NCBI GenBank assembly: GCA_016932915.1
Contig: JAFGBY010000030.1
Coordinates: forward strand, 9,671-73,670
Source of the DNA: Acidobacteriota bacterium
GTDB lineage: Bacteria > Acidobacteriota > DATKUA01 > JAFGBY01
DNA length: 64,000 nt
Reading direction: 5' to 3'
Shown here: piece by piece, positions 28,773 to 44,315 of the stretch
Position numbering within the stretch: the stretch's first letter is position 1
Layout of the letters: the number at the start of each line of letters is the position of its first letter
Position numbers and translations under genes: made by a program
The notes under the pieces: model-generated
What the model was told of the DNA's origin: nothing
The model's database searches: none
Seen by the model: only the letters and a program-made list of their open reading frames with translations

Positions 28773-30101
28773 TTATTTATATACTTTAAAATGATTAATT
28801 GCATCCTCGGCAAAATTCGGACTAACATAATCATTGATAGATACAGCCTTACCTGAAACAATACGTATCTCCCGGCTCCTCCTCTGCTCATTCCATTGCG
28901 GGTGTGAGTAGGTTACCCGGTAATTGCCCGGGTTCAATGGAATCTGAGCCGGCGAAACTTTTACTGATTCATCGAGAGTAATTATTTGGCTATTGTCAGT
29001 ATTGACTATCTCATCGATAACAGCATATGGTTTCACGTTAAAAATAAGATTCCCCGCGATAATTCCACCAGTAGTATCCGTTTTATTAAATACAGCAACC
29101 CATAAAATAAAAACAATTGCCAGAACGGCAAATACGCTACCGGCAAGTATGGGAAAATTTTTCTTCCCTCTCTTCGTCTCTTTCTTCTTTTCTTCTTCCT
29201 GTTTCCCGTAATCTATTTCAGTATCTACAATAATGGTTTCCATTTTGTCATCGACTATCATTGTCGGTTCCTGAACATGAAAACCCTGTGTCGTGACTTT
29301 CTGGATCAGTCTTTCGATATCATCCGCCATCGCCTTCATTGTAGGATAGCGGTTTTCAGCCTTCTTCTGTAATGCTTTTTCACAAATGGAAACCAACTCT
29401 GGGAACCTGGATGTGGAAATATCAGAAAAACTTTTAGGCTCTTCACTTAAGATTTTATAGAGAATCGTGGAAATATTATCTCCGGAAAATGGCTTTGTAT
29501 AAGTAAGAATTTCATAAAGGATGACGCCTACCGCAAATTGATCCGAACGTCCGTCTACCTTTTTCCCGCTGACCATCTCAGGAGACATATAATGCGGAGT
29601 GCCCATGATTGTTCCGGTTTTGGTAAGGCCGGAGGTCTGCATGGTTGCCAGGCCAAAATCCATTATCTTTATCGTGCCGTCTGCCAATACTTTGATATTT
29701 GCCGGTTTAATATCACGGTGAAAAACATCATGCTTATGCGCATAATCAAGGCCAAGGCAGATCTGGCGAATAATATCCAGTTTCTCCTTTAGCGCCATAT
29801 CAGGTTTGGAAGCAATAATCGCATCGAGGTCTTTGCCCTCGAGTAATTCCATGGCAATAAATAGCTGGCCATCCTCTTCACCAAAATCGTAGATCGTAAT
29901 AATATTATTATGGCGCAGCTTACCGGCTGAACGGGCTTCACGTATAAATCTTTCCTTGAGGTCGGCATCAGATTCTGTAGATGATATCGTTTTAATTGCA
30001 ACTTGCCGCTCGAGAGTGGGATCGAACGCAAGATATACAACACCCATAGCGCCTTTCCCCAGTTCTTTTTCAACCCGGTATTTTCCGAAATTAGTTTTCA
30101 T
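28773..30101 (-). CDS. Hanks-type Ser/Thr protein kinase with a TM segment and a C-terminal extracytoplasmic PEGA-like domain
   Basis: GKGAMGVVYLA...AIK (subdomains I-II), HRDIKPANI, DFGLA, GTPHYMSPE. TM FPILAGSVFAVLAIVFILWVAVF. C-terminal VKVSPAQIPLNPGNYRVTYSHPQWN. Confidence 0.8.
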   Translation of the reverse strand: MKTNFGKYRVEKELGKGAMGVVYLAFDPTLERQVAIKTISSTESDADLKERFIREARSAGKLRHNNIITIYDFGEEDGQLFIAMELLEGKDLDAIIASKPDMALKEKLDIIRQICLGLDYAHKHDVFHRDIKPANIKVLADGTIKIMDFGLATMQTSGLTKTGTIMGTPHYMSPEMVSGKKVDGRSDQFAVGVILYEILTYTKPFSGDNISTILYKILSEEPKSFSDISTSRFPELVSICEKALQKKAENRYPTMKAMADDIERLIQKVTTQGFHVQEPTMIVDDKMETIIVDTEIDYGKQEEEKKKETKRGKKNFPILAGSVFAVLAIVFILWVAVFNKTDTTGGIIAGNLIFNVKPYAVIDEIVNTDNSQIITLDESVKVSPAQIPLNPGNYRVTYSHPQWNEQRRSREIRIVSGKAVSINDYVSPNFAEDAINHFKVYK

Positions 30102-30178
30102 GAAGAGCCCTCTTAAACTTATGATTTATTATATATTGTACAACTATTAAACTCAAGCAGCCACTTATGCAGAACGCT

Positions 30179-31702
30179 TTAGTGATTATTCCCGGAAAGC
30201 TCAACTTCTATATCATCAGATGCACTATGATCGAGCCTTATTTTTCTGCGCCCCACTGAAACCACCCATGTTTCCCCATCATCCACCCTGCTTTCGAGGA
30301 CAATGCAATTGCCTTTTTTTAAACCCGATTTCTTTGCGCGTTCACCGATTGCTGTGACAGTTGCCTCGGAACCTGTGCGTAGCAGGCTCAACTGAAACTT
30401 TTTACCCTTCGCAACTTGTAATGGATCTGCCGGAATCGACTCCCCGTGAGGTCCCTCTTCCGGGTGACCCAGCATACCGTCGATATAACCGATTGCTTCG
30501 TTATCGTGCAGATGTTCCAGGTGATGGGCTATGCTGTGAACCTGACCTTCGGGCGCCCCAACTTTCTGTAAATAGGTCTCCCAGAGACGATGAGCTCGTA
30601 ATATCCTTACTGCTTCTTTCTCCCCTGAATCGCTGAGCTTGAATCCGCCATCGGAAGAGATAAGCATTTCATCCTGGGTCAACAGGCGGAGGCCTTTCGA
30701 CAGATACTTATCGTGTGAATGAATGTAACCCTTGATAACCTGTTCACTGACAGGTTTACCTCCCTCACGAAGGATAGTCACCAGGATATCCTCAGTGAGT
30801 TCCTGTGGAATCATTCGCATCCTGCGGAGCTTCTTCGCAATCATCCCGTAGCGTGGAGCAACCGCAAGGACAAACAGAAATTGGAAAGTACAGAATAGCA
30901 TAATCGCCCCGCCGCCGGATGAATCGAGCCAGATGCTTATATATAGCCCCCCGATAACACTTGTCGTCCCAAAAAGCGCTGCGAGAAGCATCATCCGGTC
31001 AAGCCGGTCACTCAGCAGGTATGCCGTAGCAGCGGGCGTAATGAGCAGGCCCACAACAAGAATTACACCAACCATGCTGACAGCGCTAACGACTACCAGT
31101 GAAACCGAGGTCGTCAGCAGGTAATCGATCAGCACCACCGGAATTCCTATAGAAGCCGCCATGATGGGATCAAACGCGGTAATCTGGAAATAACGGAAGA
31201 ATAATATAATCAAGGTCAGGACAATCGACGCTACGATTGCCGCCACCCAGAGGTCGCTATCCGCGATTCCAAGCACATCGCCCATTATGAAATGGACTAT
31301 ATCGATATGAATATATTCATGGAAAACCGAAACCAGAACGACGCCGGCAGCAAAGATGCCTGTATAAATAATTCCGATTGCGGTATCTTCCTTTATCCTT
31401 GAAATATTTGAAACAAAACCTATCAACGCCACGGTCACAACCGCAGCAATTATGGAACCGATCAGCATCGCAGGGGCGTATGCCTCCACGTCGAATATCA
31501 GCTTCATAAAGAGGTAACCGCCGCTCACTCCTGCGATCATAGCGTGCGAAAGGGCATCACCCAGGAAGGACATCTTCCTTAGAATAACAAGACATCCGAT
31601 GACAGAGCAGACTACCGCGGCTATTGTCCCGCCGATCATCGATTTTACGAAAAATGCCTGGCCAAGCGGTTCGATAAAAGCGGTATGGAGCAGTTCTATC
31701 AT
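30179..31702 (-). CDS. Metal (Zn/Mn/Fe-type) ABC transporter permease fused C-terminally to a complete DtxR-family metalloregulator (HTH + metal-binding + FeoA/SH3-like)
   Basis: N-terminal ~290 aa form an ABC-3 type permease (8-9 TM). Residues ~300-507 parallel DtxR along their length (RAHRLWETYL vs RKHRLAERLL; HSIAHHLEHLHDNEAIGYIDGMLGHPEEGPHGESIP vs the DtxR metal-site region; terminal SH3-like ...KGNCIVLESRVDDGETWVVSVGRRKIRLDHSASDDIEVE). Confidence 0.7.
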   Translation of the reverse strand: MIELLHTAFIEPLGQAFFVKSMIGGTIAAVVCSVIGCLVILRKMSFLGDALSHAMIAGVSGGYLFMKLIFDVEAYAPAMLIGSIIAAVVTVALIGFVSNISRIKEDTAIGIIYTGIFAAGVVLVSVFHEYIHIDIVHFIMGDVLGIADSDLWVAAIVASIVLTLIILFFRYFQITAFDPIMAASIGIPVVLIDYLLTTSVSLVVVSAVSMVGVILVVGLLITPAATAYLLSDRLDRMMLLAALFGTTSVIGGLYISIWLDSSGGGAIMLFCTFQFLFVLAVAPRYGMIAKKLRRMRMIPQELTEDILVTILREGGKPVSEQVIKGYIHSHDKYLSKGLRLLTQDEMLISSDGGFKLSDSGEKEAVRILRAHRLWETYLQKVGAPEGQVHSIAHHLEHLHDNEAIGYIDGMLGHPEEGPHGESIPADPLQVAKGKKFQLSLLRTGSEATVTAIGERAKKSGLKKGNCIVLESRVDDGETWVVSVGRRKIRLDHSASDDIEVELSGNNH

Positions 31703-32475
31703 ACGGCTGCCTCCTTCGCTTTCAACTCGGTGAAAACACGGAGGTTTCCTTCATAGACTTCACTGAGGAGATCAGTATCCAATACCTTCTCAGGCGGGCC
31801 ATATGCATAAAGACGTTGCTTGATCAAAATAATCCGGTCGAAGTATTCGGCTGCGGTCGCAAGGTCATGATGGACAACAATAAGAGTCTGCCCGTTTTTC
31901 TTGGCAGCTTCGAGGACATCCAGTATCGCCCGCTCCGTGGCGGCATCGACACCTGCGAACGGTTCATCAAGAAGTAACAGATCCGCTCCCTGCGTGAGAG
32001 CCCGCGCCATGAATACCCTCTGCTGTTGTCCACCGGAGAGCTGGCCTATTTGCCGTTTACGGAAGTTCTCCATCTTGACCATCTTCAGCGCTTCATCCAC
32101 CAGATCTCGGTCATCCTTTCCCGGATTTTTCCACCAGGCGATTTTCCCGTATCTGCCCATCAACGCCACCTGCTCGACGGTCACTGGAAAATCCCAGTCC
32201 ACAGCGCCCCGCTGGGGAACGTAAGCAACTTTGCCTTTTGATTCGGCCAGGGGATTCCCGAATACATTTACCGAGCCGAAATCAGGCTCTATAAAGCCAA
32301 GAATCGATTTAAGTAAGGTCGACTTGCCCGAGCCGTTCGGCCCGATAATGCCGACCATTATCCCGGGCGGTATATCAAATGAGATGTCCAGCAGGGCAGG
32401 TTTCGGGCCGTAGCTGACCGTCAGGTTCTTCACCTGCAATGCCGATTCCAAATTACTACTTTTTTTCCCCGCCAT
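31699..32475 (-). CDS. Metal ABC transporter ATP-binding protein (ZnuC/MntA/TroB-like)
   Basis: Walker A GPNGSGKSTLLK, signature LSGGQQQRV, Walker B LLLLDEPFAGVD. Confidence 0.85.
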   Translation of the reverse strand: MAGKKSSNLESALQVKNLTVSYGPKPALLDISFDIPPGIMVGIIGPNGSGKSTLLKSILGFIEPDFGSVNVFGNPLAESKGKVAYVPQRGAVDWDFPVTVEQVALMGRYGKIAWWKNPGKDDRDLVDEALKMVKMENFRKRQIGQLSGGQQQRVFMARALTQGADLLLLDEPFAGVDAATERAILDVLEAAKKNGQTLIVVHHDLATAAEYFDRIILIKQRLYAYGPPEKVLDTDLLSEVYEGNLRVFTELKAKEAAV

Positions 32476-32480
32476 ACCTG

Positions 32481-32966
32481 CTAATTATCCTTCGCCTTGT
32501 CCTCATTAAAAACAACTGTCATCACTACAGGTTCCTCCGGCTCGAACCAGAACACATCGGAGAAATATTTCACCCCATCCTTTTTTATCTCAACATTCAC
32601 TGCAGCTGGGCGTGTTGCGTCTTCAGAAGATCTTGATAGCTCTATAAAAACTTCGTTCTTTCCCTCGATGATTCCCGGGAGATTATTTATCCTGAATGTG
32701 CTGTCAAACGGTGATTTCATCATCTCGCCCGTAAGCCTCATTCCATTGATACTGATCACCGCATTCTCCCCGCCTTGAGCGTTCAGGAGGAAAACCTCTT
32801 CCCAGCTGATTTTAAACGTCGTGGAGATATCCAGGGTATAAATACCTTCCGCTTTTTCGGGCTCCGCAATGTGATGAGTTTCCTCCCCTGTATCACGGAT
32901 ACCCATATAGAGAAACAGGCCACCGATGAGCAGCACGTTTATAAATATCGCAATTAATGGCCTCAT
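32481..32966 (-). CDS. Hypothetical membrane-anchored periplasmic protein within the metal-uptake operon
   Basis: N-terminal TM (LIAIFINVLLIGGLFLYMGI) followed by a ~130-aa soluble domain with His/Glu-rich stretches. No identifiable family. Confidence 0.35.
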   Translation of the reverse strand: MRPLIAIFINVLLIGGLFLYMGIRDTGEETHHIAEPEKAEGIYTLDISTTFKISWEEVFLLNAQGGENAVISINGMRLTGEMMKSPFDSTFRINNLPGIIEGKNEVFIELSRSSEDATRPAAVNVEIKKDGVKYFSDVFWFEPEEPVVMTVVFNEDKAKDN

Positions 32967-32974
32967 CCGTTTTT

Positions 32975-33889
32975 CTACTCCAGAGCTTTCACAATTTTTA
33001 ATACATTCTCGCGCATCATCCCAATGTAAGTATCTCCCGCCGTGCCGTGTTCACCCATTGAATCGGAATACAACTCACCACCTATCTTAATGCCCGTCTC
33101 CCTCGCAATCTCACGGATGAGCTTGGGATTAACGCTGGTCTCCACGAAAAAAGCCCTCACACCCATCTTTTTGGTAGATTCAATTATCTCGATCCTGCGT
33201 TTAGGCGTCATCCCCGCCCCTATCTCTGAGCCGGTCGACCAGCCGACAGGCGCTTGAGCATCGATATTATACGTCCTGCCGAAATAATTGAACGCATCAT
33301 GGCTCGTAATTAGTATCCGCCTATGGGGCGGTATCCTGCTTACTTCTTTCTTGATCCAGGCATGAAGGTTCCGCAGCTGCTGCAGATAAAGCCTGGCCCT
33401 CGCTTCGTACTTTTCCTTGTTTATCGGATCGAGTTTACAAACCGCTTCCGTAATGTTGCGAACGTAGACAGCGGCGTTCCTGGGATCAAACCAGGCATGA
33501 GGATCAGGAACAGTCTGCCCGCTTTTTTCAATTATCAATGGTTCGATCCCGTCCGTGCAGGTGACGATCGGTTTACCCGCATCCTTCGCAAGTGTCGCCA
33601 TCCAGTTTTTCCCTTCGAGATGAAGGCCGTTCTCGAAACAGAGGTCTACGCTTGCAGCGCGCTGGGCATCACCCGGAGTAGGCTGATAAGTATGAGGGTC
33701 AGCTCCCGGCGGAAGCACTGCGTAAACAATGCAGTCATCACCTACTACGTTTTTCACAAAGTCATTAATCTGGGTGGTCGAACAGAATAAAACCGGTTTG
33801 CCTTCTCTTTCGGCAGCTAATAGAAAAAAGGAAAAAACAACCAGGATAAAAACTATATACAAAAATGAGGTTTTAATATTTTTCATCAA
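32975..33889 (-). CDS. Metal ABC transporter substrate-binding protein (cluster A-I, ZnuA/TroA/MntC-like)
   Basis: Signal/TM anchor. Conserved metal-ligand regions (PPGADPHTYQPTPGD; ITSHDAFNYFGRTYNI; YSDSMGEHGTAGDTYIGMM). Confidence 0.8.
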   Translation of the reverse strand: MMKNIKTSFLYIVFILVVFSFFLLAAEREGKPVLFCSTTQINDFVKNVVGDDCIVYAVLPPGADPHTYQPTPGDAQRAASVDLCFENGLHLEGKNWMATLAKDAGKPIVTCTDGIEPLIIEKSGQTVPDPHAWFDPRNAAVYVRNITEAVCKLDPINKEKYEARARLYLQQLRNLHAWIKKEVSRIPPHRRILITSHDAFNYFGRTYNIDAQAPVGWSTGSEIGAGMTPKRRIEIIESTKKMGVRAFFVETSVNPKLIREIARETGIKIGGELYSDSMGEHGTAGDTYIGMMRENVLKIVKALE

Positions 33890-33985
33890 ATGTTTGGACC
33901 AATGGTTAATATAAAGAATCGTTTAGGAATCCATTTTACCAAATCTTTTCTGAACATCAACAAAGCACTGAAAATACTCATACAA

Positions 33986-33998
33986 TACATAAAATGTA
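33986..33998. promoter_or_regulatory. 13-bp perfect palindrome TACATAAAATGTA overlapping the predicted start site of the metal-uptake operon promoter. Candidate operator for the fused DtxR-like domain.
   Basis: Seen in sequence. Minus-strand promoter elements TTGCTG (rc of 34034-34039) - 17 nt - TTATAA (rc of 34006-34011) place the TSS near 33998. Confidence 0.3.
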
Positions 33999-34151
33999 CT
34001 TCGCGTTATAATTTCTATAAAACAAAATCAGCAATTTTGCGTTTATTATTGTGACAGACATAAAATAACCTCTCTGGAGTGGTTAGGTAAAAACGGGTCA
34101 CAATGTAACGGCCCGTTTTTTTTATCATTCTAAAACATTCCCCTATCTTTC

Positions 34152-34179
34152 TTGACAATTTCATACACGGAATTATAGT
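34152..34179 (+). promoter_or_regulatory. Sigma70-type promoter (TTGACA - 16 nt - TATAGT) upstream of the Rieske/cyt b/CydA-like operon. It implies a ~170-nt leader.
   Basis: -35 at 34152-34157 and -10 at 34174-34179. The first gene's ATG is at 34356 with SD AGGAG. Confidence 0.45.
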
Positions 34180-34355
34180 ATCAGTGAATGGATAATATCT
34201 CCCGGATATGTTCACTAATAGTCAAACAACGGTTAAGAACGCAAATTTAAGGTCTTTATATAAATAGAACTCCTGAGGCATCCGGAAAATAATATGCACT
34301 CAGAGTAGTTAATATTATTAACAATTGTATTTTGGGAAAAGGAAGGAGACCTCTT

Positions 34356-35477
34356 ATGCCAATTAGTTATTTCCCGCTGGCTGACCCGATCCCTCTACCG
34401 GCTCCGGTGTGGTTTTTCAAATTGCTCCACACCGTCACATTGACCCTGCATTTTTTTGCAGTGCATCTGTTGATTGCCGGTCTTATCCTCGGGATTGCAT
34501 GGGCGCTGAATGCAAGGTTCAGGGGCCGTAGCGTCAGTATGGAATCCGCTGGGCTTATAACAAACCGCCTCCCGATGGTGATGGCATTTGTTATAAACCT
34601 TGCGATACCGCCGCTGCTGTTCACGCAGGTGCTTTACGGCAATGCCCTGTTCAGCAGCAGTATAATGATCGGCCTGTTCTGGATATCGGTAATTTTCCTT
34701 GTAATCATCCTGTATTATTTCCTCTACATCTCACAGCAGAGGCTGAACAAGGGTAAATCATGGTGGTGGCTGAACTTGATAGCCCTGGTACTCGTTTTTA
34801 AAGTAGCGCTTATCTATGTCAACAATATGACCCTCATGCTGCGGCCTGAAGCCTGGCCGGAGATGTACAAAAACAGCCCGATTGGAGCGCAACTGGCATC
34901 CGGAGACCCGACGATAATCCCCAGGTGGCTGTTCATGATATTCGCTTCACTTGCCCTCGGCGGAACCGGTATACTCATACTTTCCATGAAAAAATCGATC
35001 ACCGACGAAGTAAGGAAATACCTCAGGCTCTGGGGTTGTGCGATAACTGCTGTATTCGCTATGGCGATTATCCCACTAGGTATGTTGGTTATAAACAACC
35101 AACCAGATACCGTTCGCCAGGCGATAAAGGAAATGGATGTTTATTCGCAGTTCCTGAACATCTGGAAAGCCTCAGCGGCGTTACTGGTAATGGCAGCGAT
35201 AATGACAGCAGCACAAGCTTATAACGCTCGGAAAATCTTCCCTGTATTAGCATTTGCTGCCGCATTTATAAATATCCTGAGCTGGGTGGTGGTAAGAGAC
35301 GGCATCCGGGATATCACATTATACGAAAAGGGATTGGATGTATGGAACCGTACAATAGCGACAAACTGGTCTGTAGTAATTTTCTTCCTTGTGCTGTTCC
35401 TGGTTGCAATAGGAGCGCTTATCTGGATGACAAGATTAATTTTCACGATGAAAGAGAAAAAGGAGTCTTATGCCTGA
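34356..35477 (+). CDS. Polytopic membrane protein (~10 TM). Its N-terminal helix motif resembles the downstream CydA-like protein, so it may be a divergent CydA'/CydB-like partner subunit. Start re-assigned to the ATG at 34356.
   Basis: LLHTVTLTLHFFAVHLLIAGLILGIAWAL parallels IAIIHILISHFAVGGGIYLAFAE of the 37055 gene. No soluble domains. The TTG at 34332 lacks an SD, whereas the ATG at 34356 has AGGAG 8 nt upstream. Confidence 0.45.
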   Translation: MPISYFPLADPIPLPAPVWFFKLLHTVTLTLHFFAVHLLIAGLILGIAWALNARFRGRSVSMESAGLITNRLPMVMAFVINLAIPPLLFTQVLYGNALFSSSIMIGLFWISVIFLVIILYYFLYISQQRLNKGKSWWWLNLIALVLVFKVALIYVNNMTLMLRPEAWPEMYKNSPIGAQLASGDPTIIPRWLFMIFASLALGGTGILILSMKKSITDEVRKYLRLWGCAITAVFAMAIIPLGMLVINNQPDTVRQAIKEMDVYSQFLNIWKASAALLVMAAIMTAAQAYNARKIFPVLAFAAAFINILSWVVVRDGIRDITLYEKGLDVWNRTIATNWSVVIFFLVLFLVAIGALIWMTRLIFTMKEKKESYA

Positions 35478-35967
35478 CAAAACAAAAAAAACAGTAAGCA
35501 CTGACCCTGGTAATCGTGAAGATAAAGTTAATGTAACCCGGAGGAAATTTATAAGGGCCGGGATGGGAGCAGCAGGCGTTGCATATGCTGCCGCGCTCGG
35601 TTACCCGGTTTATAGATATCTGGCTGATCCGGCGGAGAAAGCAGCAGCGCAGGCAGCAGAGACAGAAAAAGAATTAGTCGGCGCGGATACGCTGCCGCAG
35701 GGAAGCGCAATGATTTTCCGTTTCGGCGGACAGCCTGCATTATTGATTCATCACGAAGATGGCTCGTGGGTATCGTTCAGCGCAGTATGTACTCACCTCG
35801 CCTGCACGGTTGAGTTCCAGAAAAAAGAAAAACGGATACACTGCGCGTGCCACGGCGGAACATACGATATGTACACGGGGAAGAACATAAGCGGTCCTCC
35901 CCCGAAACCGTTAACCCCTTTTAAAGTGGAGGTGTTAGATGGCAAAGTCAAAATCGCTAGGGCCTGA
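35470..35967 (+). CDS. Rieske [2Fe-2S] iron-sulfur protein with a Tat signal
   Basis: Twin-arginine motif TRRKFIRAGMGAAGVAYAAALG. Rieske boxes CTHLACTV and CACHGGTYD. Confidence 0.85.
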   Translation: MPDKTKKTVSTDPGNREDKVNVTRRKFIRAGMGAAGVAYAAALGYPVYRYLADPAEKAAAQAAETEKELVGADTLPQGSAMIFRFGGQPALLIHHEDGSWVSFSAVCTHLACTVEFQKKEKRIHCACHGGTYDMYTGKNISGPPPKPLTPFKVEVLDGKVKIARA

Positions 35968-37042
35968 TACTATGGGGACACGGTTTTATAAATGGCTCGA
36001 TGAACGCCTGGCTCTGAGCACTATGGCGGGATTCCTTTCGAAGAAAACCGTTCCACAGCATAAGCACTCCCACTGGTATTACTGGGGTGGTATAACGCTT
36101 ACGTTCCTGATCGTACAGTTCATCACCGGCATACTCCTGTTAATATACTACAAACCGGGGCCGGATGCGTTCGAATCGGTCCGATTTATAACTTATGAAC
36201 TTGAATTCGGCTGGTTCATCAGGGGGCTTCATCACTGGAGTGCTAACCTGATGCTACTGGCGTTATTCATACACATGTTCTCTGTTTTCTTCATGCGGGC
36301 ATACCGCAGGCCGAGGGAATTCGGCTGGTGGACAGGTGTATTACTTCTTCTCATCACATTGGGATTCGCATTCAGCGGCTACCTGCTGCCATTTGATGAA
36401 TTATCCTACTTCGCCACTAAAATCGGCCTTGACGTAGCGGAATCATTACCTTTGATCGGCCCCGCTCTTGCCGCAATTGCCCGGGGAGGAACAGACGTAA
36501 CTTACCTGACCATACAGCGGTTCTTCACCCTGCATATTATAGTGCTGCCGTTGATAATCCTGGGAATATTGACAATTCACCTTGTCCTCATCCTAAAGCA
36601 TGGAAATGCCTCACCACCAAGCGAAGAGGCCAAACCGAAGAACAAACGGAAAGAGATAAAATTCTTCTGGGACTTCTTCGTGAAAGATATCACGATGTGG
36701 CTACTTGCTCTAAATTTCCTGATACTGGTCACAATTCTCTTCCCACCGCAGCTCGGCTCACCCGCCGATCCCCTGGCGCCCGCCCCCGAAGGTATACATC
36801 CCGAGTGGTATTTCATGAGCCAGTATCAATTCCTTAAGATATTCGGCAACATTCTACCCGGCGCCATTGGTGAGTTTATAAGTATCGGATTGATGGCATG
36901 TGCCCTGCTTTTATGGGCAATCGTTCCGTTGATTGATAATACCGGAAAGGCAGGGAAAAGAGCAAAAGCGGCAACATATATCGGCTTGTTATCAATAGTA
37001 ATCCTCGTGGTGCTCACAGCGTGGGCATACCTGGCAATATAG
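35939..37042 (+). CDS. Cytochrome b (b6-like N-terminal four-helix bundle fused with a subunit-IV-like C-terminus)
   Basis: His pairs in helices B and D (RGLHHWSANLMLLALFIHMF; TLHIIVLPLIILGILTIHLVLILKHG). PEWY motif (HPEWYFMSQYQFLK). Strong SD GGAGGTG before the ATG at 35939. Overlaps the Rieske gene by 29 nt. Confidence 0.85.
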   Translation: MAKSKSLGPDTMGTRFYKWLDERLALSTMAGFLSKKTVPQHKHSHWYYWGGITLTFLIVQFITGILLLIYYKPGPDAFESVRFITYELEFGWFIRGLHHWSANLMLLALFIHMFSVFFMRAYRRPREFGWWTGVLLLLITLGFAFSGYLLPFDELSYFATKIGLDVAESLPLIGPALAAIARGGTDVTYLTIQRFFTLHIIVLPLIILGILTIHLVLILKHGNASPPSEEAKPKNKRKEIKFFWDFFVKDITMWLLALNFLILVTILFPPQLGSPADPLAPAPEGIHPEWYFMSQYQFLKIFGNILPGAIGEFISIGLMACALLLWAIVPLIDNTGKAGKRAKAATYIGLLSIVILVVLTAWAYLAI

Positions 37043-37054
37043 AGGAGGTGGAAG

Positions 37055-38476
37055 ATGAATTATCCAGTTTGGGTTGTACCGGTGATTGGAAGCGGATGGG
37101 TAATAGGGATAATCGCGATTATTCATATTTTAATATCCCATTTCGCAGTTGGAGGAGGAATCTACCTCGCTTTTGCTGAAAGAAAAGCCAGGAAAGAGAA
37201 CAGGAAAGACTGGCTCGAAATTATCCAAAAACATTCAAGGTTTTTCCTGTACCTTACTATTGTAGCCGGGGCAATGACGGGAGTCGCAATCTGGTTTTCA
37301 ATCGCACTCTCCAGCCCGGAGGCGACAAGCGCGCTCATTCATAACTTCGTTCTCGGCTGGGCATCGGAGTGGACTTTCTTTATAATTGAGATAACCGCGA
37401 TTATAGTCTACTACTATACCTGGAACAGAGTCTCAGCGAAAAAACACGAAGCTGTAGGCTGGATATATGCAATATCCGCGTGGATGAGCCTCTTCATAAT
37501 CAATGGCATCCTGACATTTATGCTCGATCCCGGGAAAGGCTGGTTATCAGTCGCGGGGACGGGCGCAGAACCATCAAAATTCTGGGAAGCTTTTTTTAAT
37601 CCGACCTATTTCCCGAGCCTGTTGATGCGGACCCTTGTTTGTATTACGCTTGCAGGCCTGTTCGCGATGGTAACCGCCAGCCGTATAAATGAAGAAAAGG
37701 AGCCAAAATTAAAGGAACAAATCGTTAAATGGTCGGCAAAATGGCTGATGCCGGCGTTTGCCCTAATTCCAGTTGCAGCGCTCTGGTATTACCTGATGCT
37801 CCCACAGGCAAATAAAGACCTCTTCAAACTTGGAGTCTCCACAATCGGCCAGGGAATATTCACACAGCTAACAAGGAACGCCGTTTTCCTGATTTTCGCT
37901 TCTATTATTCTTTTCTTCATCGCTTATGTATTCCTCTGGCGTCATCCAAAATCCGTCAAACTTTCACATGCACTTTTGATAATCCTTCTCGCGTTCAGCA
38001 TTATCGGTGTAACGGAACATATGCGGGAGATGATGAGAAAACCATATGTAATTGGTAACTATATGTATTCCAACGGAATCAGGAAATTTGACGCGGAAAA
38101 ATTTAATTCGGAGGGATACCTGAGGAATACAATCTGGACAACAGAAGAATCAAAAACCACATGGCATATCCAAGACACAATGACGTCGGAAGAATCAGAC
38201 AATTTATCATCACCCATTCAACCTGATTTGTACAGGGGCGAATTGATGTTCCGCGGGCAGTGTATCGCTTGCCATACAACGAATGGTTACCGCTCGATAA
38301 GTAAATTGCTGAAAGGTCGTGACGAGGCATCGATACGCTCTATCATTGATATGCTGCATGAATACAAAGAAGATTCGCCCTACAGAAAATTTATGCCTCC
38401 ATTGGTCGGAACCAAGGGAGAAGTAGACGCATTGATCAAATACCTGGATTCACTGATTAATAAAATAGATCAATAA
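37055..38476 (+). CDS. Cytochrome bd oxidase subunit I (CydA)-like membrane protein with a C-terminal monoheme c-type cytochrome domain
   Basis: Aligned by eye to E. coli CydA landmarks as recalled from memory. IIHILISHF resembles the YHFLFVPL/H19 region. ASEWTFFIIEIT resembles IEGLMAFFLEST (E99/E107). YYTWNRVSAKKHEAVGW resembles FFGWDRLGKVQH (H126). FNPTYFPSLLMRTLVCITLAGLF resembles LNPVAQVKFVHTVASGYVTGAMF, so the heme b595 ligand His186 is replaced by Arg. C-terminal CIACH (CxxCH) in a ~90-aa soluble tail. SD GAGGAGGTGG. Confidence 0.6.
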   Translation: MNYPVWVVPVIGSGWVIGIIAIIHILISHFAVGGGIYLAFAERKARKENRKDWLEIIQKHSRFFLYLTIVAGAMTGVAIWFSIALSSPEATSALIHNFVLGWASEWTFFIIEITAIIVYYYTWNRVSAKKHEAVGWIYAISAWMSLFIINGILTFMLDPGKGWLSVAGTGAEPSKFWEAFFNPTYFPSLLMRTLVCITLAGLFAMVTASRINEEKEPKLKEQIVKWSAKWLMPAFALIPVAALWYYLMLPQANKDLFKLGVSTIGQGIFTQLTRNAVFLIFASIILFFIAYVFLWRHPKSVKLSHALLIILLAFSIIGVTEHMREMMRKPYVIGNYMYSNGIRKFDAEKFNSEGYLRNTIWTTEESKTTWHIQDTMTSEESDNLSSPIQPDLYRGELMFRGQCIACHTTNGYRSISKLLKGRDEASIRSIIDMLHEYKEDSPYRKFMPPLVGTKGEVDALIKYLDSLINKIDQ

Positions 38477-38488
38477 AAAGACGAAAAT

Positions 38489-38520
38489 GCCGGGCCTTCA
38501 AAGCCCGGCATAATTTTGTT
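38489..38520. terminator. Bidirectional rho-independent terminator between the convergent 37055-38476 (+) and 38531-39082 (-) genes
   Basis: gccgggc-cttcaaa-gcccggc stem-loop flanked by aaaat on the left and ttttgttt on the right. Confidence 0.65.
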
Positions 38521-38530
38521 TGAAAAAAGA

Positions 38531-39082
38531 TTACAGCTTGACACCAATTACAAACAGGACCTCAAGACCACCTAAATCAGACTCTTCGATGCTGAGCAGA
38601 TAATATCTTGCTTCACCACCTATGAACAGCCCACCACCAAGACAGTAATTTAACCCTGCAGCAAACCAGGCACCAAGACCGCTATCATCTGTAATTCCTG
38701 ACATATCATAGCTGCCGAGTAATAAACCGGCGCCTATTTTCGGATCAAGGGCATCTTTACCAAGATGGTAATAGCCACCAAACAGAATAAAAGTCTGGTC
38801 AAGATCAAACAGCTCCAAAACAGAATCCATGGTTGAGAACAACGACAAGCCTGCCGTGAGTTCGATCTCAGGTGTAATCATAAAACCGGCATTTGCGCCA
38901 AAAGCAATGTTATGATCCCAGCTGTCACTAATATCGGAATTTGTAATAATGTGATAACCGATATTTGCTGAAAGTGTGAAACCGGAACTCTTTTTTACTG
39001 GCTCTTCCTGCGCAAAAGCGGTGAAGCTAAAGAGCAGCATAAGGCCCACCAACAACGAAACATAAATATTCTTCCTCATCAA
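38531..39082 (-). CDS. Small outer-membrane beta-barrel protein (OmpW/opacity-porin-like)
   Basis: Signal peptide. Alternating hydrophobic beta-strand pattern. C-terminal ...LFVIGVKL aromatic/hydrophobic terminus. 183 aa. Confidence 0.5.
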   Translation of the reverse strand: MMRKNIYVSLLVGLMLLFSFTAFAQEEPVKKSSGFTLSANIGYHIITNSDISDSWDHNIAFGANAGFMITPEIELTAGLSLFSTMDSVLELFDLDQTFILFGGYYHLGKDALDPKIGAGLLLGSYDMSGITDDSGLGAWFAAGLNYCLGGGLFIGGEARYYLLSIEESDLGGLEVLFVIGVKL

Positions 39083-39206: not shown

Positions 39207-40691
39207 CTATTGGAATCTGGAATAGTACTCAATAAATGTAGGATCGAATATCTTTTTACTAAAGCTGTATTCCGGGTCTAATTCTGACACTTTTTTCATA
39301 TATACTTCAGCGGAGGAAAGAAGATTTGCATCCTGTTCACCGGTCAATCTATATCTCGAGAAATATACAAGCCCCAGGAAAGCATTCATACCGGCGCTGT
39401 CTTCGTATGCCGGCAATGCTTCAAGGAAAGTATCCGTAGCTTTTTCCAGGTCTCCAGCTAAATAGTACTTCAAACCGATATTAATCTTATCCCGCCCAAC
39501 GACTTTAAAATCTTTATAGAATCCCCGGACCTGTTCATTTGTGCTGTCCAGTGCGTTGGCTTTATTGTAATAAGTCCTGGCGGACGAATAGTCTTTTTGA
39601 TCAAGCGCCTGTTTCGCGCCATCAATATATTCCCTGATTTCATCTTTCATCTTATCCGAACCGGAAGCAGCCTGGAGTTTTTTATTTATCTCCCCCAGCT
39701 GGTACTTCGCCCTGCTGTTTTCTGGATCAATTCTGAGGGCCCTTTCGAATTTCAATTTAGAATTCACCAGGTCGCCCGCTTTATAATCTTCTATTGCGTT
39801 ATCAACCAGCGCTTCCGCTTCCTTCTGTTTTTGCTGTGAGGCTGCTCTCTCAGAATTACTCCTCGCATCCCTGATAAGTTTATCCAATGTTTTATTTTCC
39901 GGTTGGAGGTTTTGCGCCTGTTTGTACATCTTTATCGCAGATGAATAATCGCCTGATTTTTCATAATCCTTACCGCTGTTTACATAGCGCTCCGCCTTTT
40001 CAGCATTATCAATTTTTGTAATCCATTGGCGCGCTTCTTTATTAGCTGAATCTTCTTTCAGTGCTTTATTGAAAGCGGTCTTTGCAGCTGAATAGTTCCC
40101 ACGGTCGTACTCGCGTCTACCATCTCGAATCGCATTATTGATTCGGCTTTGACGTTGTGCGTTTTGTAATTCTGTAGATGTCAAAACAGTCGTTGAAGTT
40201 TTAACCGTGGCGGTTGGCTGTACTGTAGTAGTGGCAGTGGGTGTAATCGATGTCGGAGTCACAACCGGTGTTGTTGTCGTAGTCGAAGTATTCTGGTTAG
40301 AAGCGCTCACACGCTGTTTTCCATCGCTCAACATACTGTTCAACCTTGAATACAAATCCTTACTTTCACGGATTTCGCCTTCCTGGTTAGAACGCTCAAG
40401 CCATGAAATCGCCTGTGAATAATTTTTTAGTTCATAATGGCAGAGGCCAAGATAATAATAAGGGAAATAATCGATATATTTAGTACCGTAAGCCCTTCTT
40501 CCGGCTTTCGGTGATGGTTCCTGAGCAATCAATCGGTTAAGGATGCTTACCGCCGCGCCGAAATTACCATCATCGATTAATTCTATTGCCCTCTCATATG
40601 TCTCGTACCATCTCTCAGCAAAAACTAATGATGAGAAAAGACAAATAACAACAAGCAGAACAACTGGGCTTTTAATTATATTTCTCATCAT
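39207..40691 (-). CDS. Secreted TPR-repeat protein with a Thr/Pro-rich linker. Paralogue of 26060-27343.
   Basis: Signal peptide. FAERWYETYERAIELIDDGNF...YIDYFPYYYLGLCHY block shared with the 26060 gene. TSTTTTTPVVTPTSITPTATTTVQPTATVKTSTTV linker. Many TPRs. Confidence 0.6.
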   Translation of the reverse strand: MMRNIIKSPVVLLVVICLFSSLVFAERWYETYERAIELIDDGNFGAAVSILNRLIAQEPSPKAGRRAYGTKYIDYFPYYYLGLCHYELKNYSQAISWLERSNQEGEIRESKDLYSRLNSMLSDGKQRVSASNQNTSTTTTTPVVTPTSITPTATTTVQPTATVKTSTTVLTSTELQNAQRQSRINNAIRDGRREYDRGNYSAAKTAFNKALKEDSANKEARQWITKIDNAEKAERYVNSGKDYEKSGDYSSAIKMYKQAQNLQPENKTLDKLIRDARSNSERAASQQKQKEAEALVDNAIEDYKAGDLVNSKLKFERALRIDPENSRAKYQLGEINKKLQAASGSDKMKDEIREYIDGAKQALDQKDYSSARTYYNKANALDSTNEQVRGFYKDFKVVGRDKINIGLKYYLAGDLEKATDTFLEALPAYEDSAGMNAFLGLVYFSRYRLTGEQDANLLSSAEVYMKKVSELDPEYSFSKKIFDPTFIEYYSRFQ

Positions 40692-42853
40692 TCAATCCCC
40701 AGTTCTTTAAGGAATGTCTCAGAATTCATATTCGAGATATTATAATTCAGGTTGTTGACCTGCCCCTCGACCACCGAAACATCGAAGGTCTTTCGGACAT
40801 TCAGACTGTCATTAAACACAGTGATCGTATACTGCCCTACTGGAAGTTTCAGCTCACATGGAGAGACCTTCCCGGCTACCTCTATTTCTTTATTTGAACT
40901 ATCCACAACTGACTCAATGGTTCCCCAGGGCACAACGTTTATTCTTACAAGCCCTTCTCCGGCTACAAGAGGACGGCCAATCGGCTCAGTTTCTTTACCC
41001 TTACCGGTAAATAGGATAACCGCCACGATGGCAATTGCGATAACTGCGACAACTCCTAATATTATTGGAAGTGGAGATTTTCCGGGTTTTTTTGCCTTGA
41101 TTGTAGCGGAAGGCTCCGGTTTGTATTCCTTTGCTGCTCCAGTATAAACAGTTGGGGCATCAGGTGCAATTTCCTGCTTTCGTATACCTGTAGTCGGCGT
41201 CGCGACAACAGTAGGAACAGAAGTACTTTCCATTCCTCCTGAATAAACAGTTTCCTGTTCTGCCGTTTTTGAACTTTTATCCATTAATGTGGCGACTTCA
41301 GAAGTTGTTTTCACACCTGCAGCGACAAATGTTTCGCTATCAGGAGGAACTGCAGCCCCCCCGGTAAGTTTATCCAATTCCGATTTTACTTTAAGGACAT
41401 CTGGATCGTTGGAATCAAGAGAAAGTGCAGCAGACAGGGATTTCTGCGCTTCATAATAATTCTTTACCCTTATGTTCTCCTTGATATGATTTAGAATCAT
41501 ATCAATTTGCTTCTTATCATCAGCCCGATCACGCTTGTTATTGATCGCCTCTCTTAATTCAGTGGAATATTTATTCTTTGGATCGATATCATCAAGAAGT
41601 TTAACTTCTTTTAACGCATCGATATATTGACCTTTGTTTATCAGTGTATTGATCTTCTTGACTTGATCATTAAGCAGCTGTTCTTTTTCCTTATCAGCAA
41701 TCGTAGTCTGGATACGGGAAATCATTATTTTAGCGGAAGTATCATCAGGAAGAATATCGAAAGCGCTTTCAGCCATTTTATAAGCTTCTTTAAATTTCTC
41801 TTCCTTGTAGAGTTTGTCGGCCTGTTTTAATATTCCCTCAACATCGCCTTTTTTAGTTTTGATAAGTTCCGATTCGACCTTTTCAATTAACCTCTTTAAA
41901 ACTGAATTATCAGGATCGAGAGATAGAGCTTTATTATATATCTCCGCTGCATTCTGGAATTTCTTCGCCTTCATCAGGTTTTTACCCTGTTCGATGAGCT
42001 TAACAATCTCTCCCTGAAGCGCTGGCTGAGTAGCCATTTTCTTTTCGCCGTAAAGATCAATGACGGCTTCGAGATCTTTGATCATCTCACTCATTGATTG
42101 ATATCTCTTCTCCTGTTCCTTCTCAACCGCTTTCATAATTACAGTTTCAATTTCGATAGGAACATCGAGATTCAACTCCTCAAAACTTGGCAGTGGTTCG
42201 TGGGCAATTTTATATAAAATAGTTGTGATCGATTCTGATGTAAAAGGTTTCTTGTGAGTCATCATCTCCCACAGGATTATACCTACAGAGAAAATATCTG
42301 AACGGTTATCGATCTTTTTACCCATAACCTGTTCGGGAGACATATAATCAGGGGTACCGATGATCATGCCGGTCTTGGTCATATCGGATGAAGCCATATG
42401 AGCAATACCAAAATCCATTAATTTAGCTTTACCGGTTTTAAGCAGCATTACATTAGCCGGTTTGATATCCCTATGAACAACTCCCTTGTTATGCGCGTAT
42501 TCGCATCCCTTACAAATCTGGAGAATGATATTTAGCTTCTCAGGAAGAGACAGTTCCTGCGTGAGCATTATATGCTTTAAATCATCGCCATCGAGAAATT
42601 CCATAGCGATATAATAGGTCTGGTCATCATGGCCTAAGTCATATATGGTGATTATATTCTCGTGGTTCAGCTGCGCTGCCGCCTGGGCTTCGATCAGGAA
42701 ACGTTTTAACATCTCCTCATCTTTATCAACGCCTTCTAACATAGTTTTCAGCGCAACAAGCCTGCCCAGAACGGAATCCCTGGCACGGTATACCATTCCC
42801 ATGGCGCCCTTGCCTAGTTCACCGATGATTTCATATTTTCCTATCTTCTTCAT
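40688..42853 (-). CDS. Hanks-type Ser/Thr protein kinase with intracellular TPR repeats, a TM segment and a C-terminal extracytoplasmic PEGA-like domain
   Basis: GKGAMGMVYRA, HRDIKPANVML, DFGIA, GTPDYMSPE. TM ILGVVAVIAIAIVAVILF. C-terminal KVSPCELKLPVGQYTITVF. Confidence 0.8.
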   Translation of the reverse strand: MKKIGKYEIIGELGKGAMGMVYRARDSVLGRLVALKTMLEGVDKDEEMLKRFLIEAQAAAQLNHENIITIYDLGHDDQTYYIAMEFLDGDDLKHIMLTQELSLPEKLNIILQICKGCEYAHNKGVVHRDIKPANVMLLKTGKAKLMDFGIAHMASSDMTKTGMIIGTPDYMSPEQVMGKKIDNRSDIFSVGIILWEMMTHKKPFTSESITTILYKIAHEPLPSFEELNLDVPIEIETVIMKAVEKEQEKRYQSMSEMIKDLEAVIDLYGEKKMATQPALQGEIVKLIEQGKNLMKAKKFQNAAEIYNKALSLDPDNSVLKRLIEKVESELIKTKKGDVEGILKQADKLYKEEKFKEAYKMAESAFDILPDDTSAKIMISRIQTTIADKEKEQLLNDQVKKINTLINKGQYIDALKEVKLLDDIDPKNKYSTELREAINNKRDRADDKKQIDMILNHIKENIRVKNYYEAQKSLSAALSLDSNDPDVLKVKSELDKLTGGAAVPPDSETFVAAGVKTTSEVATLMDKSSKTAEQETVYSGGMESTSVPTVVATPTTGIRKQEIAPDAPTVYTGAAKEYKPEPSATIKAKKPGKSPLPIILGVVAVIAIAIVAVILFTGKGKETEPIGRPLVAGEGLVRINVVPWGTIESVVDSSNKEIEVAGKVSPCELKLPVGQYTITVFNDSLNVRKTFDVSVVEGQVNNLNYNISNMNSETFLKELGIE

Positions 42854-42917
42854 ATCGGAATCTATCTCTCGTTCAATTAACTGAAAAATTATCTAAAAGT
42901 ATTACTAAGTAATCCCC

Positions 42918-44279: not shown

Positions 44280-44315
44280 CTCGTTATTATCTTAATTTAT
44301 TTTCCAGTTAATATG

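Follow-up and report, generated by a model that had tools for sequence, protein, structure and literature searches.

A conserved cassette in Acidobacteriota and other phyla places Rieske/cytochrome b genes between two bd-type subunits and may encode a quinol-oxidising bd-type assembly

Which enzyme is encoded where the genes for a Rieske protein and a cytochrome b lie between those for two CydA-like membrane proteins, and where would its electrons go? Four such genes (g1-g4, Table 1) were analysed within a 64,000-nt stretch of Acidobacteriota DNA (the window). A previous sequence-only reading had described them as tightly linked, and the open reading frames confirmed this layout, with overlaps of 8 nt (g1/g2) and 29 nt (g2/g3) and a gap of 12 nt between g3 and g4. 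For g1, the ATG at 34356 is the likelier start, as it is preceded by an AGGAGA Shine-Dalgarno sequence and gives a protein of 373 aa in agreement with NCBI MBN2134420.1. Shine-Dalgarno-like sequences precede all four starts.

The promoter and the bidirectional terminator that the sequence-only reading had placed around the genes are both present as candidate sites, and the leader from the promoter to the ATG of g1 would measure about 177 nt. In the sequence scans, the total numbers of promoter-like and hairpin sites did not exceed shuffle expectation, so that both sites lend positional support only and are neither proof nor statistical evidence. An Rfam search of 33880-38600 returned sub-threshold chance matches only and no known riboswitch or leader. 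The gene overlaps, the Shine-Dalgarno sites and the universal synteny described below argue indirectly for co-transcription of g1-g4.

Table 1. Positions of genes, candidate signals and sequence motifs in the window
Feature	Position	Strand	Description
Promoter candidate	34152..34179	+	sigma-70-like, TTGACA-16 nt-TATAGT; 11/12 match, top of scanned region
g1 ORF	34332-35477 (alternative TTG start); 34356..35477 (ATG start)	+	373-aa membrane protein
g2	35470..35967	+	Rieske [2Fe-2S] protein
g2 RRKF	35539-35550	+	twin-arginine motif
g2 CTHLAC	35788-35805	+	cluster box
g2 CACH	35842-35853	+	cluster box
g3	35939..37042	+	cytochrome b, fused b6 + subunit IV type
g3 PEWY	36800-36811	+	Qo motif, residues 288-291
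g4	37055..38476	+	473-aa OR-C1a-type CydA-like protein with heme c domain
g4 H24	37124-37126	+	body landmark
g4 E105...E112	37367-37390	+	body landmark
g4 REMMRKP	38024-38044	+	body landmark
g4 heme c domain	38207-38473	+	residues ~385-473
g4 CIACH	38261-38275	+	heme c motif, residues 403-407
g4 MPP	38393-38401	+	heme c motif, residues 447-449
Hairpin	38487..38511	.	intrinsic-terminator-like, bidirectional; 9-11 bp stem, 7 G-C pairs, T-runs on both strands
Outer-membrane beta-barrel gene	38531-39082	-	convergent, beyond hairpin from g4

The g4 protein matched Cyt_bd_oxida_I (PF01654) over residues 15-228 with an E value of 1.1e-20 and 74 bits, well above the gathering cutoff of 26.2. Its assignment to the CydA family therefore stands, whereas the CydA-like part, put at ~400 aa by the sequence-only reading, is shorter: only residues 1-330 form the membrane part, with eight TM helices, and are followed by a structured linker. 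The modelled membrane part shows the bd fold of two four-helix bundles, predicted to be superposable on solved CydA and CydB. At the C-terminus lies a mono-heme class I cytochrome c domain, as the earlier claim of a CxxCH heme c site had it; residues 394-467 matched cytochrome c Pfam models weakly. Its CxxCH is the only one in ORFs of at least 100 aa across the window.

An alignment of 120 g4 homologues with an overall identity of 53-66% revealed invariant H24, E105, E112, Y119, H131, E321, E325, R328, C403, H407 and M447. C406 is kept in 119 of them, and 117 have exactly one CxxCH. H24, E105, E112 and H131 align to H21, E101, E108 and H128 of G. thermodenitrificans CydA. E325 aligns to E. coli E445 via a weak second HMM stretch and fold equivalence; a table of Murali et al. 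(10.1101/2021.01.16.426971) marks E445 as absent in OR-C1a. At the b558 ligand positions, the 120 homologues showed no invariant His in TM5 and no Met in TM7, and the TM6-TM7 connection of g4 is short (~20 residues), so the Q-loop is absent. The quinol-oxidising group qOR1-4a is recognised by the heme b558 ligands H186 and M393 together with a quinol-binding Q-loop, and g4 lies outside it. From the loop charges over the eight helices (K+R 18 inside versus 4 outside), both the N-terminus and the tail with its heme c are predicted to lie in the periplasm and not, as would have spoken against the earlier proposal, in the cytoplasm. This is the same side as that of the Tat-exported Rieske domain.

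These properties (no quinol site, eight TM helices, a C-terminal periplasmic CxxCH) agree with the description of OR-C1a. OR-C1, comprising OR-C1a and OR-C1b, was defined phylogenomically as a group of bd-like oxygen reductases by Murali, Gennis and Hemp 2021 (bioRxiv 10.1101/2021.01.16.426971; ISME J 15:3534), quoted throughout from sections of the preprint text and its supplement. All ten residues of the OR-C1a reference signature (H24, E105, E112, S145, H131, L153, Y119, Y121, V77, W80; Supplementary Table 6) are identical in g4 at the same numbering, and H186 is missing; within the g4 family, position 145 is occupied by S or T. The only cydA of Chloracidobacterium thermophilum, with which g4 shares 55% identity and an identical operon structure, is classed as OR-C and listed as OR-C1a (Cabther_A0912, IMG 2512359796; Supplementary Table 7), and g4 is placed by this orthology.

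The g1 protein has no CxxCH and is modelled with nine TM helices, the N-terminus outside and the C-terminus inside, compared with about eight published for OR-C1b in the preprint (bioRxiv 10.1101/2021.01.16.426971). Searches by BLASTP against g4 and with Pfam and NCBIfam gave no match; homology is therefore taken from the predicted structure, which has a cytochrome bd subunit fold, and from a weak, collinear profile-profile similarity to g4 (E 0.0032). The claim that g1 is CydA-like thus holds at the level of fold and profile and finds nothing behind it in the direct searches. H32 in TM1 is invariant and is the only active-site or channel-type residue kept, the proton-channel glutamates being lost. 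In the naming scheme of Murali et al., g1 falls under OR-C1b: g1-like proteins always adjoin OR-C1a-like genes, and the C. thermophilum orthologue (locus L001) corresponds to IMG 2512359799, which Supplementary Table 7 lists as OR-C1b, three gene IDs from OR-C1a.

The two inner genes are what the sequence-only reading took them for, a Rieske protein and a b6-type cytochrome b with PEWY. The g2 protein matched Pfam Rieske (9e-14) and, under the equivalog cutoffs, the NCBIfam b6f/bc1 iron-sulfur subunit models (6e-20 to 2e-17). It contains both cluster boxes including the disulfide cysteines, and a twin-arginine motif followed by a TM anchor, with a borderline score against the TAT signal model (16.5 bits versus a cutoff of 16.7). 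The g3 protein, a single chain of 367 aa with about seven TM helices, matched Cytochrome_B (1.6e-45) and Cytochrom_B_C (7e-8), and its nearest solved relatives are cytochrome b6 chains (9e-52). The heme-ligand His pairs H98/H112 and H199/H214 are spaced by 14 and 15 residues as in b6. A b6f-type protein with heme c_i was considered for g3 and rejected: b6 Cys35 aligns to a Tyr, leaving g3 with no counterpart of the cysteine that binds heme c_i, and b6 and subunit IV are not split.

From gene content, folds, conserved residues, topology and synteny we infer heme occupancy, subunit contacts, an electron path and O2 as substrate as follows. The g3 and g2 proteins would oxidise quinol at the Qo site with its PEWY motif by a Q-cycle. 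The four-gene cassette contains no c1/f gene and the g4 tail is its only c-type heme, for which reason the periplasmic heme c of g4 is proposed to accept the Rieske electron in the role of c1. The electron would then pass to hemes in the eight-helix CydA-like body, where H24 and E325 occupy the putative axial-ligand positions of the heme d/b595 pair and E105, E112, H131 and S145 would be proton-channel residues facing the cytoplasm. The b558 ligands and the Q-loop, which canonical enzymes use for direct quinol oxidation, have been lost. The g1 protein may pair with g4 as CydB does with CydA and dock the Rieske subunit. Together, Q-cycle and bd-type charge separation would translocate about two charges per electron, compared with one in a canonical bd oxidase. 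The cassette probably forms a self-contained end-piece of a respiratory chain, and we put the chance that a single membrane assembly delivers (mena)quinol electrons to a bd-type catalytic site, with no soluble carrier, at slightly better than even. The route from quinol through bc and cytochrome c to a bd-like enzyme, as drawn by the sequence-only reading, is supported in this form; the CydA HMM match, the topology and the evidence on co-transcription do not speak against it, and the supercomplex and O2 reduction are its conditional parts.

The absent c1/f subunit might also be explained if g4 and g1 were not catalytic: g4 would then be only a polytopic anchor, its c1-like heme c completing a quinol:cytochrome c reductase of the bc type, and g1 would have a structural or assembly role. 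The missing proton-channel glutamates of g1 and missing b558 ligands of g4 would suit this arrangement, which we nevertheless regard as very unlikely. The heme-ligand and proton-channel positions H24, E105, E112, H131, E321 and E325 are invariant in the 120 otherwise divergent g4 sequences, which a passive anchor hardly explains, and elsewhere one TM helix is enough to anchor c1.

Comparison with related genomes revealed the order g1-g2-g3-g4 in all 75 complete loci, bearing out the synteny that the sequence-only reading had put up for checking; seven further loci (82 in total) are cut by contig ends. The flanks of the 82 loci showed no conserved fifth gene. About ten phyla are named in the record titles of these loci. 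Cultured C. thermophilum has the same operon, and in a collection with a single genome per species at least 568 stretches carry the cassette, among them stretches from Acidobacteriota, Verrucomicrobiota, Planctomycetota and Hydrogenedentota. With the sole CxxCH of the window in g4, the conserved heme c residues and this invariable gene order, the features of the cassette exceed chance. In two loci (L083, L084), a g1-like protein carries a fused Rieske domain in a compatible topology; OR-C1a follows directly, with the contig of L084 ending 134 codons into that gene, and a cytochrome b gene is absent, so quinol oxidation encoded in the cassette is not obligatory for the pairing of Rieske and OR-C1 proteins. 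An 807-aa protein joining OR-C1a and g1-like parts (P0364) was rejected as a Rosetta-stone fusion and treated as a frameshift across adjacent genes, since its junction is arginine-rich and out-of-frame-like.

Synteny and the g1::Rieske fusions give indirect support to a physical bc-bd supercomplex. They also bear on whether one promoter could instead serve two separate, co-expressed enzymes that are not hard-wired, a Rieske/cytochrome b complex reducing soluble or membrane-anchored carriers (the C. thermophilum reaction centre included) and an OR-C1a/b cytochrome c oxidase. Most OR-C1 lineages in the published tables have a and b adjacent with no Rieske/cytochrome b genes (consecutive IMG gene IDs; compare L085 and L086), so a dedicated bc module is not required for OR-C1 to function. 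Rieske/cytochrome b of the green-sulfur type likewise has no operon-encoded c1 and uses a separate cytochrome c, according to the abstract of PMC10172866, and Kao and Hunte put the cytochrome b of C. thermophilum, which is of the cassette type, in this green-sulfur-type clade, grouping it with Chlorobi/NC10 sequences carrying PEWY. Two enzymes are still quite improbable in our view, because the bc genes are inserted between the OR-C1 subunits and not beside them, with translational overlaps, in every complete locus, because the fusions exist, and because neither the cassette nor the 64-kb window holds another heme c acceptor.

In the single assembly, the acceptor is most likely O2, which would be reduced to water with protons from the cytoplasm. 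Enzymes of the bd type are reactive towards NO, peroxide and further species as well, and O2 is to that extent unproven as the substrate. The same assembly and electron path could thus serve NO, H2O2 or peroxynitrite detoxification or reduce another small oxidant, as the side reactivities of the bd family discussed in the literature and the occurrence of OR-C relatives in Desulfovibrio, Thermodesulfovibrio and the like, which are strict anaerobes, would allow. An Rrf2-family regulator is encoded divergently upstream in 14 of the 82 loci, restricted to certain lineages; the Rrf2 family includes NO and redox sensors. We think an acceptor other than O2 unlikely: the equivalents of H19, E99, E107 and H126 are the exact set of O2-reducing bd enzymes, many hosts are aerobic or microaerophilic (Acidobacteriaceae, Verrucomicrobiota, C. 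thermophilum), and Murali et al. (10.1101/2021.01.16.426971) class the OR-C family among the oxygen reductases. The most specific form of our proposal is offered tentatively, at somewhat below even chance. It holds that the cassette encodes an obligate four-subunit 'bc-bd' quinol:O2 oxidoreductase, in which the heme c tail of the bd subunit replaces cytochrome c1, and which would combine the high O2 affinity of bd chemistry with energy conservation by a Q-cycle, roughly doubling the charge yield relative to canonical bd, as a widespread, overlooked terminal oxidase.

If the cassette encodes a functional quinol:O2 oxidoreductase of this kind, no earlier bd-type enzyme would have been coupled to a Q-cycle. 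Energy yield and O2 affinity would have to be re-estimated for the host bacteria, and a terminal oxidase would be added that surveys of cydAB, cco and cta genes miss. Oxidase inventories would overlook the cassette, since g4 carries the annotation of an orphan 'ubiquinol oxidase subunit I' and g1 that of a hypothetical protein; an inventory of soil Acidobacteria respiring nanomolar O2 lists no such genes (PMC8407424), whether or not its strains carry the cassette. The present assignments correct the database annotation of both proteins. They also offer a concrete, testable architecture, present in the cultured C. thermophilum as well as in phyla abundant in soil and water, for the OR-C and OR-N branches, whose donors and substrates have so far been guesses. 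No member of either branch was found purified in the literature searched, which contained no biochemical, structural or expression data for OR-C.

Published OR-C1 is among the closest known systems, with g4 matching the OR-C1a pattern and g1 the heme-c-free OR-C1b type. OR-C1a was described as the direct neighbour of OR-C1b, and Murali et al. (10.1101/2021.01.16.426971) proposed cytochrome c as the likely donor for OR-C, whereas here and in all 75 complete relatives Rieske and cytochrome b genes intervene (order b-Rieske-cyt b-a), implying that the electrons come ultimately from quinol by way of a built-in module. Such intervening genes are not mentioned for OR-C in the preprint text and supplement consulted, and full-text literature searches, Cabther locus tags included, returned no description of an OR-C operon with Rieske/cytochrome b. 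The difference lies in their position between OR-C1b and OR-C1a; the petABD link of OR-N1 and OR-N5 is already published and was overlooked when the sequence-only reading held canonical bd oxidases to have no link to bc complexes. In OR-N1 and OR-N5a/b (Nitrospirota, Chloroflexota, Rubrobacter), likewise uncharacterised biochemically, a bd-superfamily protein with no quinol site is linked to petA/petB/petD, and Murali et al. proposed quinol as donor via pet. They differ from the cassette as a separate family with 10-14 TM helices, another residue pattern, a CydA with no fused heme c, and a cytochrome b split into petB and petD where g3 is fused. Compared with canonical CydAB(X) (qOR1-3; PDB 5ir6, 6rko, 7d5i, 9r2g), g4 has neither the b558 ligands (H186, M393) nor the Q-loop, a heme c domain takes the place of TM9 of subunit I, and the partner g1 resembles CydA more than CydB; given these differences, 'cytochrome ubiquinol oxidase subunit I' is a misleading database name for g4. 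A classical c1 is also absent from the actinobacterial bcc-aa3 supercomplex and from green-sulfur-bacterial Rieske/cytochrome b with its membrane-bound cytochrome c-556, hard-wired systems in which the electron exits via a c-type heme belonging or bound to the next enzyme. Gene order alone suggests such an association here, and the next enzyme would be a member of the bd superfamily instead of the heme-copper oxidase or reaction centre that those systems use.

The sequence-only reading had described a Rieske/cytochrome b module flanked by two CydA-like membrane proteins, the second carrying a heme c. We found the four linked open reading frames (ORFs) with the overlaps and the gap it had claimed; they are called g1 (CydA-like, OR-C1b), g2 (Rieske), g3 (cytochrome b) and g4 (CydA-like with heme c, OR-C1a) here. 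An 'Acidobacteria bacterium' MAG contains identical proteins, MBN2134420.1-MBN2134423.1, named in this order hypothetical protein, Rieske protein, cytochrome b subunit and 'cytochrome ubiquinol oxidase subunit I'. Shine-Dalgarno-like sequences lie ahead of all cassette ATGs, and because of this sequence ATG 34356 is favoured as the start of g1; the product then has 373 aa, the length given by NCBI. The promoter-like site and the 3' hairpin are both well positioned, but their numbers in a scan were not above those in shuffled sequence, so they are regarded as supportive only. Transcription from the predicted promoter would give g1 an mRNA leader of about 177 nt; this leader (34180-34355) matched no Rfam family.

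Features of the cassette, its surroundings in the window and the related loci (prefix L, locus coordinates)
Feature	Position	Strand	Remarks
g1	34332/34356-35477	+	ORF
g2	35470-35967	+	ORF; 8-nt overlap with g1
g3	35939-37042	+	ORF; 29-nt overlap with g2
g4	37055-38476	+	ORF; 12-nt gap after g3
Promoter-like site TTGACA-16-TATAGT	34152-34179		upstream of g1
Perfect GC-rich hairpin	38487-38511		3' of g4; T-runs on both strands
ZnuA-like binding protein	32975-33889	minus	part of divergent metal ABC-transporter operon upstream of g1
Permease-DtxR fusion	30179-31702	minus	same operon
Outer-membrane beta-barrel gene	38531-39082	minus	convergent with cassette, beyond g4
Three Ser/Thr protein kinases, FHA-domain proteins, TPR protein, FHA-trypsin-like protease	28773-30101 and 39207-45761	minus	around the cassette
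L083	2472-5506		g1-like::Rieske fusion, then OR-C1a gene directly; no cytochrome b between
L084	217-2290		g1-like::Rieske fusion, then OR-C1a-like gene directly; contig stops 134 codons into the latter
L085	3-3208		OR-C1a-like gene with C-terminal heme c domain(s), then g1-like gene, 4-nt overlap; more distant clade
L086	1-2234		as L085
Rrf2-family regulator in L027	1877-2374	minus	divergently upstream of the cassette

In the divergent operon, an ABC-3 metal-transporter permease (Pfam 4e-58) forms a fusion with the metal-binding/dimerisation domain of a DtxR-type 'iron dependent repressor' (Pfam 2.8e-19); the operon also encodes an ATPase, an unknown protein of 161 aa and the ZnuA-like binding protein. 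Over this operon and the cassette (30001-38000) the G+C content is 0.46-0.49, compared with 0.35-0.43 elsewhere in the window; the composition of membrane proteins or a foreign origin might be the reason.

The g4 product is a bd-superfamily subunit I bearing a predicted heme c tail. Across 120 homologues (53-66% identical to g4), H24, E105, E112, Y119, H131, E321, E325, R328, C403, H407 and M447 were invariant, and C406 of the CxxCH motif was present in 119. The family profile aligned H24, E105, E112 and H131 with H21, E101, E108 and H128 of the Geobacillus enzyme, which Supplementary Table 6 of Murali, Gennis and Hemp (2021; bioRxiv 10.1101/2021.01.16.426971; ISME J 15:3534) equates with H19, E99, E107 and H126 of E. 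coli. The same profile weakly aligned REMMRKP at the end of TM8 with the AE.GRQPW segment carrying the second high-spin heme ligand; as this alignment is not significant alone, E325 is equated with E445 tentatively. The g4 family has neither a conserved His in TM5 nor a conserved Met in TM7, and its TM6-TM7 loop has about 20 residues; the family therefore lacks the heme b558 site as well as the Q-loop seen in quinol-oxidising enzymes. With the quinol site absent, the public name of g4 is misleading.

When a profile of the g4 C-terminal 90 residues was searched against the PDB, the top ranks were all c-type cytochromes (CcoP, QcrC, c552, c553, c6), with weak E-values (best 7e-5) and two beta-amylase chains lower down (E 0.03-0.06). 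Given these matches and a CxxCH motif with C403, H407 and M447 invariant, we assign the tail to a mono-heme class I domain, in agreement with the heme c site first read there. Loop charges (K+R: 18 inside, 4 outside; eight TM helices) predict that the g4 N-terminus and the heme c domain both lie in the periplasm, on the same side as the Rieske cluster.

The g1 product is most readily taken as a putative partner of g4, in the role of subunit II or CydA'. The profile-profile match between the two families was weak but collinear (E 0.0032; residues 158-317 of g1 vs 153-327 of g4), and family-invariant motifs face each other (g1/g4: TLMLRP..W/LTFMLTP..W, DPT..PRW/NPTYWPSL, VRDGIRD/EQAREMLRKP). g1 lacks the channel glutamates, its TM1 histidine H32 is invariant, and CxxCH was absent from all 120 homologues. 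The family comprises 1,670 representative clusters, and no Pfam or NCBIfam model covers it. The public name 'hypothetical protein' is misleading, since a bd-subunit fold is present.

The identities read for the two middle genes were borne out by Pfam. g2 is a Rieske protein (9e-14) that carries a TM anchor, the twin-arginine motif RRKF and, in its CTHLAC/CACH boxes, the disulfide cysteines. The cytochrome b is g3 (1.6e-45 for the N-terminal and 7e-8 for the C-terminal part), with solved cytochrome b6 chains closest to its N-terminal half (9e-52). Its histidine pairs H98/H112 and H199/H214 stand at b6 spacing and PEWY at 288-291; g3 is one fused chain, with Tyr at the position of the b6 heme c_i cysteine. 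No c1- or f-type gene is found in the cassette, and among ORFs of 100 aa or more anywhere in the 64-kb window, the sole CxxCH lies in g4. A g4 serving as a non-catalytic c1-like anchor would fit this lack of a c1 or f gene but not readily the invariant residues at bd-type positions; we consider it very improbable.

A scan covering a single genome for each species matched at least 599 stretches, and at least 568 of these encode a g4 relative. Synteny was compared in 82 loci (80 kept loci and two of C. thermophilum). The order g1-Rieske-cytochrome b-g4 was kept on a single strand in 75, and the other seven end at a contig end directly upstream of cytochrome b or Rieske. By record title (MAG labels may hold errors), the loci belong to Acidobacteriota (many families), Hydrogenedentota, Sumerlaeota, Verrucomicrobiota, Planctomycetota, Armatimonadota, Fibrobacterota, Omnitrophota, Nitrospirales and Thermochlorobacter. 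In Chloracidobacterium thermophilum, which is in culture, the operon recurs with identical overlaps. No conserved fifth gene was found in the flanks of the 82 loci. A divergent Rrf2-family transcription regulator, absent from the window, lies upstream in 14 of the 82, apparently of Acidobacteriaceae/Terracidiphilus type according to titles of example records.

g1-like proteins were always found with OR-C1a-like genes. The L083 and L084 fusion proteins (554 and 556 aa) join the g1-like and Rieske parts via a TM linker with consistent topology (C-terminus in, TM, out), and the complete OR-C1a gene of L083 is 44% identical to g4 and includes the heme c. Through these fusions the Rieske subunit is physically joined to the OR-C1 pair, and without a cytochrome b gene between fusion and OR-C1a gene they show that the cassette need not encode a cytochrome b. 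Two co-expressed yet separate enzymes, a reading against which the fusions speak, appear improbable to us. In L085 and L086 the g1-like proteins carry an extra C-terminal domain, a Tll0287-like heme c (protein P0307) or CusF and SCO1/SenC copper-chaperone domains (protein P0355).

We lean slightly towards g1-g4 forming a single assembly that transfers electrons from quinol via Rieske and heme c to bd-type O2 reduction. Quinol oxidation would take place at the g3 Qo site, and one electron would pass through the Rieske cluster of g2 to the g4 heme c, acting as c1, and from there to two TM hemes of g4 (at H24 and E325). At these hemes O2 would be reduced, with cytoplasmic protons supplied via E112, E105 and H131, while g1 would pair with g4 and dock the Rieske subunit. 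Going by the known energetics of the Q-cycle and of bd enzymes, the charge yield may be about 2 per electron, compared with 1 for canonical bd. The bd-like site might instead reduce a substrate other than O2, a variant of the same scheme that we regard as unlikely but credible. Overall, the observation of the sequence-only reading is confirmed and its interpretation, a self-contained route from quinol to a bd-like terminal reductase, is supported, with none of its three refuting conditions borne out.

Murali et al. divided the bd superfamily into the families qOR, OR-C and OR-N. In their account, OR-C subunit I has eight TM helices, lacks a quinol site, carries a periplasmic heme c at its C-terminus, adjoins a paralogue, OR-C1b, and has cytochrome c as likely donor; g4 agrees with their OR-C1a reference at every position of the conserved-residue row. 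Their tables give C. thermophilum exactly one cydA, of class OR-C, and list Cabther_A0912 (IMG 2512359796) as OR-C1a and a 'hypothetical protein' (IMG 2512359799) as OR-C1b, so both bd-like proteins were already catalogued. The two-ID gap fits the Rieske and cytochrome b genes in the C. thermophilum locus L001; most other a/b pairs in these tables have consecutive gene IDs. As far as the preprint text and supplement go, petA/B/D is linked to OR-N1 and OR-N5a/b and not to OR-C. The literature searched contained no description of the cassette and no biochemistry on any OR-C enzyme. Kao and Hunte (2014) placed the C. thermophilum cytochrome b in the Chlorobi/NC10 PEWY clade, whose complexes, in the descriptions consulted, likewise have no operon-encoded c1. 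The component families are known but uncharacterised, and the Rieske/cytochrome b module inside the OR-C1 pair, with its strict conservation and breadth, appears to be described here for the first time.
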